Shown one piece after another: positions 7,562 to 26,958 of a stretch of DNA of 64,000 nucleotides. Location of the stretch: positions 1,056,001 to 1,120,000 of the forward strand of contig CAVYTA010000006.1 in NCBI GenBank assembly GCA_963771355.1, written 5' to 3'. The number at the start of each line of letters is the position of its first letter. Within the stretch, counting starts at the first letter, position 1. The DNA comes from an uncultured Candidatus Rokubacteria bacterium (GTDB lineage Bacteria; Methylomirabilota; Methylomirabilia; Rokubacteriales; CSP1-6). Below the pieces are notes generated by a model. It saw only the letters and a program-made list of their open reading frames with translations, was not told the origin of the DNA and did no database searches. The translations under genes were made by a program, and so were the position numbers.

Positions 7562-8326
7562 ATGCTCATCGACGTCCAGGATCTGGCCAAGGACTATCGG
7601 ATGGGCGCCCAGACCGTCCACGCGCTCCGCGGGGTCACGCTCACAATACGGGCCGGGGAGTTCGTGGCGGTGATGGGCCCCTCGGGCTCCGGGAAGTCCA
7701 CCTTCATGAACCTGCTGGGCTGCCTGGACGGACCCACCGCGGGCCGCTACCTCCTGGACGGCCAGGACGTCTCCGGGTTGGGCGCCTCCGCGCTCGCCCG
7801 CGTCCGCAACCAGAAGATCGGCTTCGTCTTCCAGGGCTTCAATCTGCTCGCCCGGACGAGCGCGCTGGAAAACGTGGAGCTCCCCCTCCTGTACGGCAGC
7901 CTGTCCTCGGCGGAGCGCCGAGCCCGGGCCAACCACACCCTCGAGGCGGTGGGACTCAGCGATCGCGCCGACCACCAGCCCAGCCAGCTCTCGGGCGGCC
8001 AGCAGCAGCGGGTGGCCATCGCCCGCGCCCTGGTGAACACGCCGGCCCTCATCCTGGCTGACGAGCCCACCGGCAACCTCGACACGCGGACCAGCGTCGA
8101 GATCATGGCGCTGCTCCAGACCCTGAATCGCCAGGGCATCACGGTCGTCCTGGTCACGCACGAGCGCGACATCGCGGAGTACGCCACCCGCGTCATCTAC
8201 TTCCGCGACGGCCGACTGCAGCGCGACGAGCGGAATGCGCAGCCCCGCGACGCCCAGGCCGAGCTGCGAGACCTGCCGCCCGCCGACGATGAGGCGGCCT
8301 CCCCGGCGTCGGAGGCGGCGGCATGA
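7562..8326 (+). CDS. MacB/LolD-type ABC transporter ATP-binding protein
   Basis: Walker [10 protein letters not shown], signature LSGGQQQR, Walker [12 protein letters not shown]. Confidence 0.95.
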
Positions 8327-9556
8327 ACCTCCTCGTCTGCGCTCGGGTCGCCCTGCGCGCCCTGCGCGTGAATCCCCTGCGGAGCGCGCTCACCATGCTC
8401 GGCATCATCATCGGGGTGGGCGCGGTCATCGCCATGGTCTCGGTCGGCGCGGGCGCCCAGGCCCGCGTGGCCGAGCAGATCCGCGCCCTCGGCTCCAATC
8501 TCATCCTCATCCTGCCCGGCAGCGTGGCCACCACCGGGGTGCGGCTGGGCTTCGGCACCCGGCCGAGCATCACCCAGGAGGACGCCGTCGCCATCGCGCG
8601 CGAGGTGGGGTCCATTCAGGCCACCGCGCCGAGCGTGCGCGGCCGCGACCAGGTGATCTGGGGCAATACCAACTGGTCCACCGCCATCCAGGGCACCACC
8701 CCGGACTACGAAGAGGCCCGGCAGTGGCTGGTAGCCTCGGGCCGGTGGTTCAACCAGGAGGAGGCCGACGGCGCCGCCAAGGTTGTCCTCCTGGGCCAGA
8801 CCGTGGCGGAGAACGTCTTCGGCGGCGCCGACCCCGTGGGCGCGGTGGTGCGCGTGGCGGGCGTCCCGCTCACCGTGGTGGGCGTGCTCGAACGCAAGGG
8901 CCAGTCGAGCTGGGGCCAGGACCAGGACGACGTGGTGTTCATTCCCATCTGGACCGCCAACAAGCGGGTGCTGGGCCCGACCAAGCCGTCCGCCACCTCG
9001 GTGAACGCGATCACCGTCCGCGTGCGTGACGGCGAGAGCATGAAGGTGGCCGAGCAGGAGATCCGCGACCTTCTCCGCCAGCGGCACAAGCTGCAGGGCT
9101 ATCAGGAGGACGATTTCTGGATCCGCAACCTGTCCGAGATGCTCCAGGCCGAGGAGGCCTCGTCGCGGGTGCTCACCATGCTGCTGGCGGCGATCGCCTC
9201 GGTGTCCCTCATGGTGGGCGGCATCGGGATCATGAACATCATGCTGGTCTCGGTCACCGAGCGCACCCGTGAGATCGGCCTCCGCATGGCGGTGGGCGCC
9301 CGCGGCCGGGACATCCGGACCCAGTTCCTCGTGGAGGCGGTCACCCTCTCCCTCACCGGCGGCCTCATCGGCATCGCCATCGGGCTCGGCGGGATCCTAC
9401 GCCATCGCCTACTTCGCCGAGTGGCGGATCCTCATCAATCCCGAGGCCATCCTCCTCGCCTTCGGCTTCTCCGCCACGGTGGGCATCTTCTTCGGCTTCT
9501 ATCCCGCGCAGAAGGCCTCGCAGCTCAACCCCATCGAGGCCCTGAGATACGAATGA
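8323..9556 (+). CDS. MacB/FtsX-type ABC permease 1 (+1 frameshift near 9391)
   Basis: [13 protein letters not shown]...[16 protein letters not shown]. The conserved C-terminus ([21 protein letters not shown]) is in another frame. Confidence 0.85.
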
Positions 9557-16330: not shown

Positions 16331-17263
16331 GTGCCGTCCGGCCGTCAAACCCGTCCCTACCTGATCCTGAGCCTGATCGCCGCCCTCTGGGGCTCCTACC
16401 CCGTCTTCGCCAAGATCGCGCTCGTCCACTTCCCGCCCTACGTGCTCGTCGCGCTCCGCACCAGTCTCGCCTCCGCCTTCCTCGCCGTGCTGCTCTTCCG
16501 TCGGGGCTTCGATGATTTCCGCGCGCTGTCCTGGGGGGACCTGCGCGTCTTCGCCCTCCTCGGCTTCACCGGGATCTTCGTGTCCACCGGCGGGACGTAT
16601 CTCGGCATCGCCTTCACGACCGCCTCCAGCGCGGCCCTGCTCCAGGCGGCCTCGCCGGTGATGGTGGCGATCGGGGCGTGGCTCTATCTGAGCGAGCGGC
16701 TACGCCGGCGCCAGTGGGCGGGGGTGATCCTGTCGGCGCTGGGGGTGCTCCTGGTGGTGACGCGCGGGAGCTGGCGGGCCATCGTGCACTTCGAGCTCCT
16801 GCCCGGCGACTTCATCCTCCTGCTGAGCCAGGCCGGCTGGGCCGTGTACACCGTGTACGGCAAGCGAGTGCTCGCCGTGCACTCACCCGCCGTCGCCACC
16901 ACCGCGGCCTATGTCCTGGGCTCGCTGATGCTGCTGCCGGTGCCCTTCATCACCGCGCGGTTCTTCCCCGCCCCCGACTGGGGTTCACCGGTGGCCTGGA
17001 GCGTGGTGGCCATCCAGGGTGTCCTGGGCGCGATCGCGCATGTGTGGTGGTACGAGGGGGTGCACCGCGTGGGCGCGAGCCGCGCCGCGATCTTCATGAA
17101 CCTGCAGCCGGTGGTGGGCGTCCTGCTCGCATGGCTCATGCTGGGAGAGACCATCGAGCCCGCCGAGATCGTGGGCGGGCTCGCCGTGCTCACGGGCGTG
17201 GGGCTGACGACCCGGGCGGGGCAGCGGGCGACGGGGCCCACCCCGCCCCGCCCCGCCACCTAG
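16331..17263 (+). CDS. DMT/EamA family transporter
   Basis: About 10 TM helices; two EamA halves; FMNLQPVVG. Confidence 0.9.
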   Translation: MPSGRQTRPYLILSLIAALWGSYPVFAKIALVHFPPYVLVALRTSLASAFLAVLLFRRGFDDFRALSWGDLRVFALLGFTGIFVSTGGTYLGIAFTTASSAALLQAASPVMVAIGAWLYLSERLRRRQWAGVILSALGVLLVVTRGSWRAIVHFELLPGDFILLLSQAGWAVYTVYGKRVLAVHSPAVATTAAYVLGSLMLLPVPFITARFFPAPDWGSPVAWSVVAIQGVLGAIAHVWWYEGVHRVGASRAAIFMNLQPVVGVLLAWLMLGETIEPAEIVGGLAVLTGVGLTTRAGQRATGPTPPRPAT

Positions 17264-17727
17264 CCGATCTTCTTGACCTGCGCCAGGATCTTGTCGGGAT
17301 CGGGCAGCTCACCGCGCGCGTAGCGCTCGACGAAGCGCACGATACCCTGCGAATCCACGATGAAGGTCGCCCGAACGTTGGCGTTCCAGTCCGGCCAGTA
17401 CACGCCGTAGTCCTTGGCTACCGTCCGGTGCGCGTCGGACAGCAGCGGGTAGTGCGAGATGCCCACGGACTTGGCCCAGTTCTCGTGGCTGAAGGGGCTG
17501 TCCGTACTGATACCCAGCACCTGGGTATTCGCCGCCTCGAAATCGCTCACACGTTGATCGAAGGCGGGCATGCACTTGGATCAGCCGGGCGTCCAGTCCA
17601 GCGGGTAGAACAGGAGCACGACGTTCTTGCCCCGCAAGTCCCGGAGACTCGTCTCCTTGAGCCCGATGCCCTTGAGCGTGAAATCGGGGGCGGGGTCTCC
17701 CACCGCGAGGGTCTTGTCTTCGCTCAT
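17260..17727 (-). CDS. Selenocysteine-containing peroxiredoxin (AhpC/TSA family); TGA at 17581-17583 read as Sec
   Basis: Continuous frame GDPAPDFTL...LLFYPLDWTPG-TGA-SKCMPAF...VLGISTDSPFSH...PLLSD...RATFIVD. The TGA occupies the peroxidatic Cys position of PxxxTxxC. Confidence 0.88.
17532..17567 (-). promoter_or_regulatory. Candidate bacterial SECIS hairpin
   Basis: CCGCCUUCGAUC...GAUUUCGAGGCGG stem starting about 13 nt after the UGA. Confidence 0.55.
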
Positions 17728-18671
17728 CGTCCCATCCCTCCCTTCGCCTTGCGATACGGTCGGCGCTCGAGCTCCGGCTCCGAGAGGCGCCGACCCAGGG
17801 GGCGGCGCGGCAGCGCGCCGGCCGGCTTGCGCTGCGCGCTCCAGAGCGCCCGGCGCTGCGTCTCGAGCGGCGTATCGGCGAGCCCAAGGAAGCCCGCCGC
17901 CGTCACCACCTGGCCCGTATCCCACAGCCGCCGGAAGCGCTCGCGGTAGTCTGCCTTCCGTACCGCGTGATGATCCATGATCACCCGGCAGCCGGTGCGG
18001 TCGATGATGCGCAGCAGATGCTCCACCCCCTGCTCGATGAAAGCGTGGCCCAGCCGATGCTCCAGATACGCGGGCGCGCCCGACAGATAGAGGAGGCTCG
18101 GCCGCTCCCGCGCGAGATAGGCGGCGGCGACGGGCGACAGCGGACCCTGGACATCGGAGGCGTGCACGAAGCGACGCCCCGAGCGCCGGTCGGTGACGGT
18201 CAGCGCCACCACGTAGCCCAGACCGGACATCTCCGCGCCGTGCGGCAGCGGCGGCGAGGCGGTCAGGATGCAGTCCGGTGTCTCCACGCATCGGCCGTCG
18301 GCGGAGTCGAGCCGCGCCCGGCTCTCGGTCTCGAGCCAGAACTGGCGCGCCCGCTCCGCCTGGGTCCCCGAGACCATGCGCTGGGGATCCTTGGCGAGCA
18401 CGCCTCGGTCCGCGTAGAAGGCGGGGTCGTGGCGATAGTGCTCGTCGTGGTAGTGGCTCACGAAGATCCAGCCCGCGCGCTCGGCGTAGGCGGCGATGCG
18501 GTCATTGGCACGGCGCAGAGCCTCCCACTCCGCCTCCGCCGGCGGCAGGCCGAAACGCGCGGCCCCGAGCGCCGCGCCGGGGTCGATGAGCAGACGCGTC
18601 CCCCCGCATTCGACGTAGGTCGCCATGGATCGCACCCCGAGCGAATCCGCCGCCAGTGGGACGACGTTCAT
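17724..18671 (-). CDS. UPF0282-like metallo-beta-lactamase-fold protein
   Basis: PLAADSLGVRSMATYV, IDPG, SHYHDEH, HASDVQGP, MDHH. Confidence 0.8.
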   Translation of the reverse strand: MNVVPLAADSLGVRSMATYVECGGTRLLIDPGAALGAARFGLPPAEAEWEALRRANDRIAAYAERAGWIFVSHYHDEHYRHDPAFYADRGVLAKDPQRMVSGTQAERARQFWLETESRARLDSADGRCVETPDCILTASPPLPHGAEMSGLGYVVALTVTDRRSGRRFVHASDVQGPLSPVAAAYLARERPSLLYLSGAPAYLEHRLGHAFIEQGVEHLLRIIDRTGCRVIMDHHAVRKADYRERFRRLWDTGQVVTAAGFLGLADTPLETQRRALWSAQRKPAGALPRRPLGRRLSEPELERRPYRKAKGGMGR

Positions 18672-18705
18672 CTCATCAGTCCTTGCGCAGATGCACGGGG
18701 CGGGC

Positions 18706-19467
18706 TCAGATGCATCGGCCGCCATCCACCTCGAGCGTCGTGCCCGTGATCATCGCCGCGTCGTCCGAGGCCAGGAAGAGCGCCGCCCGCGCGAGGTCCT
18801 CCGGCTGGTTGAGCCGGCCCAGCGGCACGGTGCTGCGATATCGGGCCATCCCTTCGTCGTCCACCTTGTCCTTGCCCATGAACGCCGGGAGCATCGGCGT
18901 CTCGGTGGCCACGGGGGCGATCGCCACCACGCGCACGCCGAAGGGCGCCAGCTCCAGGGCCAGGCTCTTGGCCAGGACGTGCACCGCCCCCTTGGACGCC
19001 GAATAGCACTGCACGCCCGGCCGCGGCCGCACCGCCGAGGTGGAGCCCGTGATCAGGAACACGCCGCTCCGCTGTCGCTTCATGACCGGCGCCGCGTACT
19101 TGGCGCCCAGGAATGGCCCCTTCACGTTCACCGCCATGATGCGGTCGAAGGTGGCCTCGTCCACGTCCTCCACGGGGGTGGGGCGCTCGGGCACCCCCGC
19201 GTTCGCGTAGAAGATGTCGAGCCGGCCCCAGCGCGCCACGGTCTGCTCCACCGCGGCCTGGTTGTCGGCCGACCGGCTCACGTCGGCGCGCAGCGCGAGG
19301 GCCTGGCCACCCGCGCGCTCGATCTCCTGCGCGGTGGCCTTGGCCGCCTCTTCCCGCACGTCCACCACCGCCACCCGCGCGCCCTCGCGCGCGAAGAGGA
19401 GGGCGGTCGCCTGCCCGATGCCGGAGCCCGCGCCCGTGATCAACGCCACCTTGTCCTTGAGCTTCAT
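18706..19467 (-). CDS. SDR family oxidoreductase
   Basis: TGAGSGIG, NAG, YSASK. Confidence 0.93.
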   Translation of the reverse strand: MKLKDKVALITGAGSGIGQATALLFAREGARVAVVDVREEAAKATAQEIERAGGQALALRADVSRSADNQAAVEQTVARWGRLDIFYANAGVPERPTPVEDVDEATFDRIMAVNVKGPFLGAKYAAPVMKRQRSGVFLITGSTSAVRPRPGVQCYSASKGAVHVLAKSLALELAPFGVRVVAIAPVATETPMLPAFMGKDKVDDEGMARYRSTVPLGRLNQPEDLARAALFLASDDAAMITGTTLEVDGGRCI

Positions 19468-21005: not shown

Positions 21006-21350
21006 TCAGAGCCGATCGAGCGCGGCCAGCCGGAGCCGGCGCACCCGTCGCGAGCCCGTCCATCGGTACCGGTCCAGCGCGAGCCGTCCGCGCCGAACGG
21101 TCACCCCTTCCTGCTCCAAGAGAATTCGCTGCGTGAGCATGCTCCCCACGTTCCCCCGCACGCTGATGCCGCCCCGCGCGTTCACCACGCGGTGCCACGG
21201 CAGCCCCCCCGGGCAGTGTCGCATGGCCTGGCCCACCGCGCGCGCCGCCCGGGGGGCGCCGAGCAGGGCCGCGATCTGCCCGTAGGTCACCACCCGGCCG
21301 CGGGGGATGGTCCGCACGAAGCCGTACACCGCCCCCTGAAACCGTTTCAC
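21006..21350 (-). CDS. Alkyltransferase-like (ATL/MGMT family) protein
   Basis: [13 protein letters not shown]...ARAVG...PWHRVV (Trp in place of the catalytic Cys). Confidence 0.9.
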
Positions 21351-23149
21351 GCCGTCTCCCGCCCGAACTGCAGCTCGTACAGCCGCGCGTAGATGCCGCC
21401 CGCCGCGAGCAGCGCCGCATGCTTTCCCGACTCGCGCATCCGCCCCTTGTGCAGCACGAGGATCCGATCCGCGTTCTGGATGGTGGACAGCCGATGCGCG
21501 ATGATCAAGCTGGCCCGCCCCTCGAGCAGCGCCATCATCGCCGCGCGAATGAGCGCCTCCGACTCCGGATCGACGCTGGAGGTCGCCTCATCGAGGGCGA
21601 GGACTCGAGGATTATAGATGAGGGCACGGGCGATGGCCAGCAGCTGTCGCTGCCCGTGGGACAGATTGACGCCGCGCTCCCGGACCTCCGCGTCGAGGTC
21701 CTGCGGCAGGGCGGCCACGAAGCGCGCCGCCTGGGCCCGCTCGAGCGCCCGCGCCAGCGCTTCGGCCGACACCGCCCCGTCACCGGCGAGCACGAGATTC
21801 TCGCGAATGCTGCCCGCGAAGAGAAAGGCCTCCTGCGGCACCAGCCCCACATGGCGGCGCAGCGCGCGAAGATCCCACTCGCGCACGTCTACGCCCCCCA
21901 CCAGCACCTGCCCCTCCGCGACCTCGTAGGCGCGGATCATGAGGCGCGCGATGGTGGACTTGCCCTCGCCAGTGGGGCCCACCAGCGCCACCCGCTCGCC
22001 CTCGCCGATGGTGAACGAGCAGTGGCGGAGCACCCAGTCCCCGCCCGGGTAGGCGAACGACACGTCCCGAAACTCCACCGCGGGGACGGCGGCCACACCC
22101 CGAGCGCTGGATGCGGGCCCGGCCGATGACAACGGGGGGGAGGTGATGGCCGGCGGCGTGTCGAGCAGGCCGAAGACGCGCTCGGAGGAGACCATGGCGG
22201 CCTGCATCACCGTGTACTTGGCGCCCAGATCCCGGATGGGCAGGAAGAAGCGGCTCGTGTACTCGATGAACGCCACCAGGCCGCCGAAGGTCAGCGCCCC
22301 CGCCAGGACCTCCCCGCCCCCGTACCAGAGGAGCAGCGCCACCGCCGCCGAGCCGATGGCCTCCACCGCCGCGTACAGCGACGCCTCGTAGACCGTGGAC
22401 CGGAACTGCGCCGCCCGGAGCCCGCCGTTGAGGCCCGCGAAGGCGGCGGCTTCCTGAGGCTCGCGGGCGAAGAGCTGGATCACCGTCATCCCCTGGAGCG
22501 ACTCCTGGAGGAAGGCGTTCAGCCGGGCCAGCTGCCGGCGCACCGCGCGATAGCTCTCGCGAGCGCGGAGCCGGAAATAGGCGGCGCCCACCACGAGCAC
22601 CGGCACGAGGGCGAAGGTCACCAGGGCGAGCTTCCAGTTCAGCGAGAGCAGGATGATGACGACCCCGGTGAGGGTGACCACGTCTCCCACGATGGCCACC
22701 ACACCGCTCGTGAACAGCTCGTTGATGGCCTCCACGTCGTTCAGCACGCGGGTCATGAGCCGGCCCACGGGATTCCGGTCGAAGAACGCCGAGTCCTGCC
22801 GCTGGAGATGCGCGAAGAGCGCCTGTCGCAGATCATGCATCACCCGCTGCCCGGTGAGCTGGGTCACGTAGGCCAGGGCGGCCCGGAGCGCGTAGAGCAC
22901 CACCAGGGTGAGCAGAAAGAGCCCGGCGATCCGGCTGAGGCCGCTCCAGTCTCCGGCGAGGATGTGGTGGTCGATGGCGACCTTGATGAGGTAGGGCTGC
23001 AGGAGCTCGGCGGCGGCGGTGAGCGGGAACAGCACGAGCGAGACGAGGACCAGCCGCTTGTGCGGCCGCGTCACCGCCCACAGCCGCGCCATCAGCCGGG
23101 CGTCGTAGGCCTTCCCGAGGATCTCGTCGTGGTCGTCAGGCCTGGTCAA
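21347..23149 (-). CDS. ABC exporter fused TMD-NBD, subunit B
   Basis: GKAYDARL N-terminus; [25 protein letters not shown] start inferred. Confidence 0.88.
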
Positions 23150-24893
23150 GCTCGGCCTCGATCTGCTGCGTGCGCCAGAGCCGCGCGTAGAGCCCTCCGG
23201 CCCGAGCGAGCTCCTCGTGGGTGCCCTCCTCGACCACCCGCCCCGCGTCCAGCACCACCACCCGGTCGGCGGTCTCCGCGACCCGGAGCCGGTGCGTGAT
23301 GGCCAGCGTGGTGCGTCCCCGGAGCGCGCCTCCCAGGCTCCGCAGGATCTCGGCTTCCTTGCCCGGATCCACGGAGGCGAACACGTCGTCGAGGACGAGG
23401 TAGGCGGGGTCGCCCAGGAGCGCCCGCGCGAGAGCCGCCCGCTGGCGCTGGCCGCCCGAGAGCGTGAGGCCGCGCTCGCCCACCACGGTGTCCCAGCCCC
23501 CGGGGAGGGCCTCGACTTCCTCGGCCAGCCCCGCGGTGACGGCCGCCGCGCGCACGCGCTCGTCGGGCGCGTCGTCGTCCGCCAAGCGGAGATTGTCCCG
23601 CAGCGAGCGCGAGAAGAGGAACGCCTCCTGCGGGACATAGCCGATGCTCCGGCGCAGCATCGCCGCCGGCTGGTCGCGCACGTCGACACCGCCCACGAAC
23701 ACCGTGCCGCGCGGCGGCTCGTGCAATCGGCAGACCAGCGCGCCCAGCGTCGACTTGCCGCTGCCCGTCGGTCCCACCACCGCCACCACGCTCCCGGACG
23801 GGACCGTGAACGAGACGTCGCGCAGCGTGGGCTCACGGCCGGGGTAGGAAAAAGTGAGGCTCCGGAACTCGAGCGCACCGGAAGGAAGGAGAGCGGGCGG
23901 GGCCGTCGCGGCCGATCTCTGGTCCGGCCGATCGGCCGCCCCGGACACCGAGTCCAGGACCTCGGCGATCCGTTCCATGGACGTCATCCCGCGGCGCACG
24001 ATGGCCAGCGTCCAGCCCAGCGCCACGGTGGGCCAGGCCAGATAGGCCAGGTATCCGTTGAAGGCCACGAAGGAGCCGAGCGTGATGCGGCCCTCGACCA
24101 CGGCCCGCCCACCGAGCCAGAGAATGATCAGGCTGCCCAGCCCCGCCACCAGGCCCATCAGAGGCCAGAAGCCCGCCTGAGTGCGGGCCAGGCGCAGGCT
24201 GCGCGTCATGTACTCGGCGTTGAGCCGGCCGAAGCTCTCGATCTCCCGCGTCTCCATGGTGTAGGCGCGCACCACCGGCATGCCGGTGAGGTTCTCCTGC
24301 ACCTTGGCGGAGAGCACGCCCAGCTGCTCCTGGACGGCGACGGACTGCTCGTCCACCGCGTGGCTGAAGCGCTTGGTCGCGAGCACGAGGAGGGGCGACG
24401 GCGACAGCGCCCAGAGGGTGAGCCAGGGATCGATGGTCCACATGGCGGCCAGCGTGCCGGCGAAAGCGAGCGTGGTCGCCACCAGCATGGTGCCGCCGAA
24501 GCCCGCCAGCGCGCGCACGTTGCTCACGTCGCTGGTGGCGCGCGACATGAGATCGCCGGTGCGATGCGTCTGGTAGAAGGCGGGCGGGCGGCGGAGGAAG
24601 GACGCATAGAGGTCCCGGCGGATGTCGTGCTCCACCCACTGTCCGGCGCCGATCATGGCGAAGCGCGAGCCGAGGCGGGCGAGGCCGTGCAGGACGGCCA
24701 GGGCCAGGATGAGCAGGGCGAACACGCCCAGCGCGTGTCGGTCCGTGCCCGCGGTGAGCGCGTCCACCGCGCGCTTCACCGTCCAGGGAATGGCCAGCGA
24801 GAACGCGGTGGCGAAGACGAGGCACGCCACTCCCACGAGATAGCGGGTGAGATAGGGACGGAGATAGCCAAGGAGTCGCCGGACCGGGGACAT
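23136..24893 (-). CDS. ABC exporter fused TMD-NBD, subunit A (degenerate Walker B LDD)
   Basis: RTGDLMSRATSD; GPTGSGKST; LSGGQRQR; LVLDDVFASVD. MdlAB-type heterodimer. Confidence 0.9.
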   Translation of the reverse strand: MSPVRRLLGYLRPYLTRYLVGVACLVFATAFSLAIPWTVKRAVDALTAGTDRHALGVFALLILALAVLHGLARLGSRFAMIGAGQWVEHDIRRDLYASFLRRPPAFYQTHRTGDLMSRATSDVSNVRALAGFGGTMLVATTLAFAGTLAAMWTIDPWLTLWALSPSPLLVLATKRFSHAVDEQSVAVQEQLGVLSAKVQENLTGMPVVRAYTMETREIESFGRLNAEYMTRSLRLARTQAGFWPLMGLVAGLGSLIILWLGGRAVVEGRITLGSFVAFNGYLAYLAWPTVALGWTLAIVRRGMTSMERIAEVLDSVSGAADRPDQRSAATAPPALLPSGALEFRSLTFSYPGREPTLRDVSFTVPSGSVVAVVGPTGSGKSTLGALVCRLHEPPRGTVFVGGVDVRDQPAAMLRRSIGYVPQEAFLFSRSLRDNLRLADDDAPDERVRAAAVTAGLAEEVEALPGGWDTVVGERGLTLSGGQRQRAALARALLGDPAYLVLDDVFASVDPGKEAEILRSLGGALRGRTTLAITHRLRVAETADRVVVLDAGRVVEEGTHEELARAGGLYARLWRTQQIEAELDQA

Positions 24894-24936
24894 CCTGTCA
24901 GTATAGACGCCGCCCCGCGCCGGAGCGGGAACGCGA

Positions 24937-25870
24937 TCAGCCGACAGCTTCGCGGGGGCGGCCGTCGCGGTATGGGCGCAGGGCCGCATAGAGCGCGGCC
25001 AGCGCGGGCGTGGGAATGCCGTGCCGCTCGCCCAGGCGCACCGCATGGCCTTGCAGCGCCTCCAGCTCCAGGCGCTTCCCGTGGGCGAGGTCGAAATGCA
25101 GCGAGGAGAAGGCCCCGGGTCCGAGGGTGTCCAGCCGGCCGAGGACCGCCTCGGTCAGCGTGTCGTCGATGGCGACGCCCCCTGCCGCGGCCCACCCGCA
25201 CCAGCTCCTCGAAGAGGCGCCGGTACATGGCGCGCGTCTCCGGCAGCGCGCGAAGCACGCCGACCGGGCACCGCGTCAGCGCGGTCATGCCGGACTGGGC
25301 GACGAGGAACACATACTTCTCCCACAGCATCCGGAGAGGATCCGCGGCCAGCTCGGCGGGGATACCGGCCCCCCCGCAGGCAGCGAGGAACGCCCGCACG
25401 CGCTCGGACTCCTTCCCGCTCATCTCGCCGAAGCGCAGCCGGCCCAGGAGCCCGTGGCTGATCACGCCGGGCGCCTCGATGGTGGCGAACACCTCCGCGA
25501 TCCCCGCGATCACGTGGCCCGGCCCCAGGATGGCCGCCAGCTTGTCCTCGTTGTCGACGCCGTTCTGGATGGAGAGCACGCCGGTGTCCGGGCCCACCAC
25601 CGGCCGGATGACGTCGGCGGCCGCCTCGGTGTCGAACGACTTCACGCAGAAGAGCACGAGATCGGCCGGCGGCGCCTCGTCGAGGCGCTCCACCGCGGGC
25701 GCGCGGACGGTGAACTCGCCCTCCAGAACCGACTTCACGCGAAGTCCGCCCGCCTGGATGGCGCGGAGGTGCTCGCCCCGCGCCACGAAGGTGACGTCCT
25801 CCCCCGCCCGCGCGAGCTTGGCGCCGAAGAAGCCCCCCGTGCCCCCGCTCCCCATGATCACGATCCGCAT
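24937..25870 (-). CDS. panE: 2-dehydropantoate 2-reductase (+1 frameshift near 25185)
   Basis: GSGGTGG, VKSFD, QNGVD, WEKY. The C-terminal SSLHFDLAHGKRLELEAL...GIPTP is in a shifted frame ending at TGA 24937-24939. Confidence 0.8.
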
Positions 25871-26862
25871 CAGAGCCACCCCGCGCGCTTGAATCGCCAG
25901 TAGAGCCCCCCGCAGACCGCCACCATCAGGCCGAGCGCGAAGGGGTAACCGAGCCACCACTCGAGCTCGGGCATGTGCTGGAAGTTCATCCCGTACACCC
26001 CCGCGATCATGGTGGGCACCGCGATGATGGCGGCCCACGCCGCCAGTTGCTTCATGGAGTCGTTCTGGGCCACCGCGATCAGCGAGAGATTGGCCTCCAG
26101 CGCGGAGGTGAGGAGCTCGCGGAGGCTGTCCACCGTCTCGTTGATCCGCACCGAGTGATCGTAGACGTCCCGGACATAGGGACGGACCTCCTCCGGCACG
26201 AGGTCGATGTCGAACCGCACCAGCCGGTTGCAGATGTCGATCAGGGGGGAGACCGCCCGCTTCAGCTCCAGCAGGCTGCGCTTGAGGTTGTAGATGGCCT
26301 CGGTGGTGTCCCGGCTGAACTGATCCCCGAAGATGGCCTCCTCCAGCCGCTGGAGCTCGGACTCCAGCTCGTCCACCACCGGGAAGTACTGGTCCACGAT
26401 GAAGTCCATGATCGCGTACAGCACGAAGCCGGGCCCCATCTTGAGCAGCCGCGGGTTCGTCTCGCAGCGGGCGCGGACGGGCGCGTAGGAGAGGGAGGCC
26501 CCGTGCCGCACCGACACGATGTAGCGCGGGCCGACGAAGAGGTGGGTCTCGCCGAACTCGGCGGCCTTCTTCTCGTGACTCATCTGAGCGGTACGCAGGG
26601 CCATGAAGAACGAGTCGCCGTAGCGCTCGAGCTTGGGCCGCTGATGGGCGAGGAGCGCATCCTCGATGGCCAGCTCGTGCAGGCCGAACTCCTCCTTCAC
26701 CTTCTGCAGGAGCTCGGGTCCCGGCTCGTACAGCCCGATCCACACGAACTGGTCGGAGAGCTTGAGGACCTCGCTGATGTCCTCGATGGCGACGTTGGCC
26801 ACGCGGCAGCCGCCCGCATAGGCCACGCAGTTCACCACCCCGGGCTGAGTCTTCGTTTCCAT
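25870..26862 (-). CDS. corA: Magnesium/cobalt transporter CorA
   Basis: LHELAIEDAL...QRPKLE; YGMNF; MPEL. Confidence 0.93.
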   Translation of the reverse strand: METKTQPGVVNCVAYAGGCRVANVAIEDISEVLKLSDQFVWIGLYEPGPELLQKVKEEFGLHELAIEDALLAHQRPKLERYGDSFFMALRTAQMSHEKKAAEFGETHLFVGPRYIVSVRHGASLSYAPVRARCETNPRLLKMGPGFVLYAIMDFIVDQYFPVVDELESELQRLEEAIFGDQFSRDTTEAIYNLKRSLLELKRAVSPLIDICNRLVRFDIDLVPEEVRPYVRDVYDHSVRINETVDSLRELLTSALEANLSLIAVAQNDSMKQLAAWAAIIAVPTMIAGVYGMNFQHMPELEWWLGYPFALGLMVAVCGGLYWRFKRAGWL

Positions 26863-26958
26863 GATCGTCCCGCGCCCACTGTGCCGAGCGACGCCGATGG
26901 TTGTCAAGGCGCGCGAGGAGCCGGGCCGCGCCCCGGCCCCGTGCTACGCTCGAGGCCC

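Follow-up and report, generated by a model that had tools for sequence, protein, structure and literature searches.

Peroxiredoxins with selenocysteine (Sec) in a TxxU motif are a catalogued selenoprotein family (PMC13188914), represented by 253 GOS sequences (PMC2398784), to go by the parts of the two sources available to us. In this family, Sec occupies the peroxidatic position of a PxxxTxxU motif, and its insertion needs SelABCD and a SECIS element. In the PrxU of Eubacterium acidaminophilum (NF040737), Sec is likewise found at the peroxidatic position. The published SECIS model describes a loop led by a G, located 16–37 nt from the UGA, and some putative SECIS elements are reported to fail it; a Methylomirabilota genome, with 63 predicted selenoprotein genes, is reported to hold the record (all from the available part of PMC13188914). 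Sec peroxiredoxins have been published before, and so have Sec-rich Methylomirabilota.

Two further points from the peroxiredoxin literature, again as far as the available parts of the papers extend, bear on the protein described here. In AhpE, the glutamate at +3 from the peroxidatic cysteine takes part in a water bridge, Cys45-Glu48-Arg116, and lines the active site (PMC4965862). Resolving cysteines arose repeatedly, and five sites are recognised for them, at the termini and in helices 2, 3 and 5 (PMC4749874).

We analysed a window of 64,000 nucleotides from an uncultured soil bacterium, Candidatus Rokubacteria, which contains a gene for a putative Sec peroxiredoxin. It has the peroxidatic PxxxTxxU position in common with the TxxU family and with PrxU, and differs from what is described of them in the available sources by its 155 amino acids without a C-terminal extension, by a cysteine at +3 and by a likely SECIS loop at 60 nt.

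The gene and its place among the peroxiredoxins

The gene is on the minus strand and runs from an ATG (17725-17727) to a TAG (17260-17262), with a TGA at 17581-17583 as the sole internal stop. The following features are referred to below:

17260..17727, minus strand: peroxiredoxin gene, 155 codons plus TAG stop, with a peroxiredoxin fold in the predicted model and by Foldseek
17581..17583, minus strand: in-frame TGA (codon 49) that occupies the peroxidatic position and very likely encodes selenocysteine
17590..17604, minus strand: Pro42 to Thr46 of the PxxxTxx(U) motif, by alignment with the Prx1 motif
17572..17574, minus strand: Cys52 (TGC), the only Cys of the protein, at +3; candidate resolving thiol
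17371..17373, minus strand: Arg119, aligned with the catalytic Arg of Prx1
17531..17569, minus strand: hairpin H1, +14 to +52 from the U of the UGA; conserved lower stem, variable apex
17510..17528, minus strand: hairpin H2, +55 to +73; G-GUG-C loop (17518-17520) on a stem of 8 bp
17724..18725, minus strand: upstream coupled gene; weak match, below cut-off, to the hypothetical family PRK04286

The list of open reading frames contains one frame that ends at the TGA and a second piece, of 103 amino acids, that begins at Met53; read on the plus strand, the region is an open shadow frame. The read-through product is a 155-residue AhpC-TSA protein (Pfam PF00578, 140.3 bits against a cut-off of 26), which bears out the proposal of the first-pass annotation that a single peroxiredoxin had been split at this codon. 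Its predicted model has a pLDDT of 85, with TM-scores of up to 0.89 against solved peroxiredoxins. The translated context of codon 49 is FYPLDWTPG*SKCMPAF. In the alignment, P42-L-D-W-T46-P-G-U49 matches the Prx1 motif, the TGA falls on the peroxidatic cysteine of human Prx1 and Arg119, which is invariant across the ortholog alignment (A1), falls on its catalytic arginine.

Contigs of two DNA runs (X9 and X10) and one RNA run (X15) cover 17581-17583 and show no difference there. Since the contigs of three of the four sequencing runs carry the codon unchanged, the TGA is not an assembly error; the listed pieces of the fourth run, X16, do not reach it, and none of the other three runs is flagged as a possible source. 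RNA runs were used as contigs only and runs with a small share were left out. Databases hold mainly a piece of 102–105 amino acids (103 in the present case), which is without the active site, and the nearest named relatives are mostly labelled Rokubacteria or Methylomirabilota. The database relatives P0023 and P0024 include a form with Arg at the catalytic position and a form with Cys49 plus Ser at +3; the Arg possibly marks a dead copy or an error.

The start codon overlaps the TGA stop of the upstream gene in the sequence ATGA, and in 78 of 80 ortholog loci this neighbour lies no more than 2.5 kb away. SRPBCC-like (71), SDR (70) and EamA (63) genes are the other neighbours among the 80 loci, and no dedicated reductase gene is present among the conserved neighbours. 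The H-x-H-x-x-H motif of the upstream gene hints at a metallo-hydrolase. Elsewhere in the window, the first of two near-duplicate ABC permease genes (about 8323-9556, plus strand) runs into an off-frame tail, and an open reading frame at 9269-9556 separately carries a C-terminus matching the duplicate, which suggests a frameshift or an assembly error. Judged by the appearance of their sequences, two adjacent genes at about 21400-25046 on the minus strand (21347-23878 and 23136-25046) are ABC exporter-like, and the gene at 25870-26907 is CorA-like.

The PxxxTxxU motif, the catalytic arginine, the PF00578 match and the fold are all present, and by its sequence the protein belongs to the peroxiredoxin superfamily and to the selenoproteins of the TxxU type. 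None of the NCBIfam cut-offs is passed: scores are 78.2 against 270 bits for PrxU (NF040737) and 65.9 against 140 for PrxQ/BCP (NF006960); for Prx1/AhpC and Prx6 they are 71.5 against 272 (AhpC) and 82.7 against 211 (PRK13189), and with its 155 residues the protein has no C-terminal extension. The PrxQ signature P(K/A/R)(D/A)xTxGC is matched apart from a leucine that replaces K/A/R. The glycine before the catalytic residue and a G(V/I)SxD motif are also shared with PrxQ as described in the available part of PMC5302317. Of the AhpE signature, PxAF(T/S)xxC plus an invariant glutamate, the protein has PLDWT and Cys52 instead. AhpE of M. tuberculosis (1xvw/4x1u) and Bcp4 of Sulfolobus (3hjp) are of the same fold and length class, with TM-scores of 0.86–0.88 and 32–36% identity. 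At position 14 of the signature, in our mapping, AhpE has Glu, PrxQ has Glu or Gln and the present protein has Cys. As no NCBIfam cut-off is passed and neither signature is exact, we place the protein in a short PrxQ/AhpE-like clade of its own, where it is a candidate for an atypical 2-Cys type with Cys52 as the resolving residue.

The active site had been described in the first-pass annotation as UxxC. The cysteine at +3 is there, but the motif is not of the thioredoxin type. Prx-like thiol:disulfide oxidoreductases with UxxC (PF00578; available part of PMC13188914) belong to the same fold family and contain the same U-x-x-C string; their motif, however, is shifted by one turn relative to the peroxiredoxin and is a different site. 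The Trx-like UxxC paralogs have their Sec opposite Thr46 and their cysteine opposite codon 49, so the first CxxC position is a threonine here. The label 'UxxC' is therefore misleading: the motif is TxxU with an extra cysteine at +3.

In the helix-2 class of peroxiredoxins, the resolving site is at +5, not +3. In the predicted model, helix 2 starts at residue 49 and Cys52 is located one helical turn further. Among the 103 motif-bearing cluster representatives of the 150 listed, 70 have Glu and 29 have Gln at +3, and none has Cys there. Cys52 has one origin on the tree and is kept in all 168 distinct clade members (161 with Sec and seven with Cys at codon 49). No other cysteine follows the site in 157 of 160 UxxC forms, while 19 of the 22 UxxE sister forms carry a cysteine elsewhere. 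We give about even odds to Cys52 having taken over as the resolving thiol, with a Se-S bond formed after local unwinding.

Slightly below even we rate the alternative that Cys52 is a structural stand-in for the +3 glutamate in a peroxiredoxin of the 1-Sec type, which depends on an outside thiol for its recycling. The usual helix-2 resolving site is at +5, the change at +3 arose once and three of the 22 UxxE forms are without a second cysteine; furthermore, the glutamate lining the AhpE active site implies a non-redox role for this position (available part of PMC4965862). Against a stand-in speaks the retention of Cys52 in 168 of 168 clade members, which include the reverted Cys49 forms, in a clade with almost no other cysteine. 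A search at the level of titles and abstracts found no description of a resolving cysteine at +3, which does not establish its absence from print. Separately, five ortholog loci from family f7 (L277, L279, L280, L284 and L286) have Ala at +3, so the normally conserved +3 glutamate was lost a second time among Sec forms.

Two hairpins downstream of the UGA

The 84 nt from the UGA fold with a z-score of −2.0 (five of 200 shuffles are as good) and hold two hairpins, H1 and H2. The first-pass annotation had a single hairpin from about 13 nt downstream; a hairpin is indeed present, starting at 11 nt, but it is one of two. In this gene, H1 has an apical GUGA loop (17547-17550), 30 nt from the UGA, on an apical stem of 3 bp. 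The loop of H2 is 60 nt after the UGA, behind the conserved 39-nt H1.

Codon use was the first pointer to H2. Among 183 distinct Sec orthologs, Gly72 is encoded by GGT in 165, against 43 of 797 other glycine codons, and Asn67 by AAT in 147 of 149, against 32 of 617 other asparagine codons; the rare third bases of these two codons are pairing bases in H2. Columns +57 and +71 of H2 are A-U in 159 of the 183 orthologs, G-C in 16, G-U in six and unpaired in two, and a change of Thr68 to Ala is accompanied by a change of Gly72 to GGC. The stem of H1 covaries at two synonymous sites (C-G 148, G-C 21, U-G 3, U-A 3 and G-G 8). For the two-helix structure, 33 double-sided changes were counted in 50 diverse orthologs taken from 162, against 8.7 in shuffles, none of 500 shuffles reaching 33, and 89.8% of cells are paired, against 31–47% when the structure is slid. 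RNAalifold predicts H2 on the ortholog set, and H1 is absent from this prediction. On the tree, the two covarying pairs change six and five times. Independent-pair tests never point in the wrong direction and none is significant (median p of 0.125 with the pair in H2, 0.5 with that in H1 and 1 for Cys against broken H2). The loop and inner stem of H2 encode Q-V-L-G, a conserved peroxiredoxin strand, so its invariance is partly a protein constraint; as GGC is the preferred glycine codon, the G-C state may be partly drift. Taken together, the covariation and codon data show that selection acts on both stems.

Which of the two hairpins SelB would read can be judged against the consensus SECIS and against the other Sec genes of the genome. 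H2 has the G-led apical loop of the consensus, G-GUG-C, on a stem of 8 bp (4–16 bp in the consensus), and shares its N1-G[GU]-N-N2 loop pattern. Its loop at 60 nt is outside the 16–37 nt range, and the available part of PMC13188914 describes no layout with a loop at 60 nt behind a 39-nt hairpin. An [AG]GU loop is present in H2 in all 183 Sec orthologs, whereas in H1 only 72 show G[GU] at the apex. Three of the 183 have a G[GU] hairpin of at least 5 bp in the proximal place. Distal hairpins outnumber proximal ones by 181 to 3 in the 183 orthologs and by 29 to 1 in 30 paralog loci, and the distal hairpin also exists in seven of seven orthologs of families f8 and f13. Of the 183 Sec forms, 165 have a fully intact H2, compared with two of the seven Cys forms.

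At its threshold, a codon-score screen for Sec genes did not pick up this peroxiredoxin, and many of its hits were overlapping ends of genes; we therefore switched to a motif filter. It led to 34 hand-picked Sec genes, which are candidates only and from which four doubtful ones had been dropped before counting. A hairpin with a G[GU] loop, the loop at +20 to +29, follows the UGA in 27 of the 34; the proximal loops are mostly of the GGU, AGU or GGG type. Under a strict rule, five of the 34 are without a proximal hairpin, and the peroxiredoxin and one of its paralogs have no proximal G[GU] hairpin but a GGU loop at +63. A 7-bp hairpin at this position was found in five of 1000 Cys-codon controls. 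In family f7, 11 of 11 orthologs carry a UGGAG loop in a proximal place, at +23, and no more than two to four of the seven pairs of H2 are left in them. With H1 looped out, the 'effective distance' from the UGA to the H2 loop becomes 21–29 nt; a Cys-only control family in the same fold window gives 22–33 nt, with a much weaker H1 (−8.4 versus −18.8 kcal/mol), and because this distance is partly built in by the fold window it is not counted as support.

From these comparisons, H2 is probably the part bound by SelB and H1 a spacer. The hairpin originally named as the SECIS, H1, is conserved, but its role is probably another one. The opposite assignment would make H1 the true SECIS, of the ordinary sort but with a relaxed loop, and would give H2 an accessory role in slowing the ribosome, protecting the mRNA or stacking on H1; it seems unlikely to us. 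H1 could serve in this gene, since its GUGA loop at 30 nt fits the consensus and the published distance rule; its start 11 nt after the UGA resembles that of other SECIS stems of the genome, and the covariation at its two synonymous sites is also in its favour. Yet its loop is without G[GU] in 111 of 183 orthologs and reads ACUCUCCC in the peroxiredoxin paralog, the genome's own SECIS loops resemble that of H2, and H2 is absent where a proximal GG loop is present, as in all 11 f7 orthologs. A role of H2 in inserting a second Sec at +3 was considered and rejected, as no TGA is found at +3 in 190 loci. At title and abstract level, the literature yielded no description of a displaced bacterial SECIS; its absence from print is not established by this.

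Several other loci have similar arrangements. A Sec peroxiredoxin paralog (locus L054, G000:C6:1824335-1824796, minus strand; 35% identical, TKT-U-TEE) has a spacer-plus-distal-hairpin layout like that of H1 and H2 in 29 of 30 loci. The gene directly after it encodes a Trx-type UxxC redoxin; its TGA, at C6:1824098, is followed by a proximal hairpin of the normal kind. A Sec peroxiredoxin with the AhpE signature (PLAFTPV-U-QAE; loci L298, L303, L305 and L306), from another family of the class, has the GGU hairpin at +63 in four of four loci, with six of seven pairs. The candidate TGA at G000:C5:117453 (minus strand; HELKCS*PEGM) has no proximal G-loop hairpin and is followed by a 13-bp hairpin with its loop at +69; this could be a further case of a displaced SECIS, or the TGA could just end a gene.

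Decoding of codon 49

The genome searched for Sec machinery is 99.8% complete. Profile matches over cut-off were obtained for selA (555 bits), selB (367), selD (266) and tRNA-Sec (69), in agreement with the earlier supposition that the organism uses Sec. The selA, selB and selC genes are within 5 kb of each other on contig C7, and selD is on C4. The selD match sits in an open frame of 817 amino acids with a CGGC site, which we read as the Ndh-SelD fusion type (available part of PMC2398784). An unusual SelB is not supported, as the protein of 628 amino acids has normal domains, including the wing domains.

The peroxiredoxin was matched in 50 of 61 genomes, and because 49 of the 50 matches keep one TGA, its presence is not due to chance; the fiftieth is a contig-edge fragment without the codon 49 site. 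Across 190 ortholog loci, which overlap and were not deduplicated, codon 49 is TGA in 185 and TGC or TGT in five. This agrees with the proposed Sec at the peroxidatic site, and the alternation of Cys and TGA that had been suggested as a check is observed. On a tree built without codons 49–75, three changes between Sec and Cys are needed. An origin of the Cys forms in genomes without Sec machinery is not supported, since selB is over cut-off in three of the four genomes with a stop-free match; the fourth is 78% complete. Within the genome, 11 of 16 redoxin matches carry a TGA at the redox site. The first-pass annotation had named a lack of Sec machinery and a Cys codon in the reads as contrary outcomes; the machinery is present, and the spanning contigs do not differ at the TGA. 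Codon 49 is very likely decoded as Sec.

It is very improbable that the TGA is a true stop in a split or dead gene, with a restart at Met53. Such a restart would use an invariant ATG four codons after the TGA, and its product would resemble the 102–105-residue piece that the databases mainly hold; but in 49 of 50 genomes the two halves stay in one conserved frame and the TGA falls precisely on the catalytic residue, uninterrupted Cys forms exist, neither piece has an active site and the Sec machinery is present. A reading of TGA as Cys, Trp or Gly, through a general code change or a suppressor tRNA, would fit the TGAs in 11 of the 16 redoxin matches but has a negligible probability: TGA is the commonest stop, ending 1381 of the 2332 long coding frames of the genome, and is therefore not generally reassigned, tRNA-Sec is the sole tRNA with a UCA anticodon at the default threshold, and the TGAs occupy redox-Cys positions.

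The selenoproteome of the genome appears large, with about 30 candidates that add to the redoxin matches or overlap with them. By their motifs, we take these to include AhpD-like CxxU, UGSC, DsbA, glutaredoxin-like and rhodanese-like proteins and two formate dehydrogenase-like genes.

Proposed mechanism and its meaning

The reading that best explains the whole, to which we give a probability of roughly two in three, is a 155-residue peroxiredoxin with Sec49, recoding guided by H2, H1 as a spacer and Cys52 as the resolving residue. SelB would insert Sec at UGA49, likely guided by H2. H1 would begin where the mRNA leaves the ribosome and fold out 39 nt, bringing the H2 loop to the reach of about 24 nt that is usual for an ordinary SelB. 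The selenolate of Sec49, held by Pro42, Thr46 and Arg119, would then reduce the peroxide and be converted to the selenenic acid. Peroxidatic reduction of this kind is established peroxiredoxin chemistry, here transferred to a protein with Sec. The first turn of helix 2 would unwind, allowing Cys52 to resolve Sec49 as an internal Se-S bond, and a thioredoxin-like partner would reduce the bond between residues 49 and 52; to these last two steps, resolution by Cys52 and reduction by such a partner, we assign a one-in-two chance.

The selenoprotein itself is mostly an annotation fix, as the databases hold the inactive half of 103 amino acids. The enzyme is of a known kind; the new elements are the two-part signal and the cysteine at +3. 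If H2 is the site for SelB, the 16–37 nt rule of SECIS predictors has natural exceptions, and genes of this sort would be missed. It would also be a natural design for producing recombinant Sec proteins without rewriting the residues directly after the Sec, a rewriting that the available part of PMC10778597 gives as a known limit of the E. coli system. A resolving cysteine at +3, if true, would be a new position for peroxiredoxin chemistry. More broadly, we find it reasonably likely that Sec recoding in bacteria does not require its hairpin to stand right behind the UGA, that three peroxiredoxin lineages of the Methylomirabilota use a two-part SECIS, which frees the residues after the Sec to vary, and that the +3 cysteine may act in resolution.
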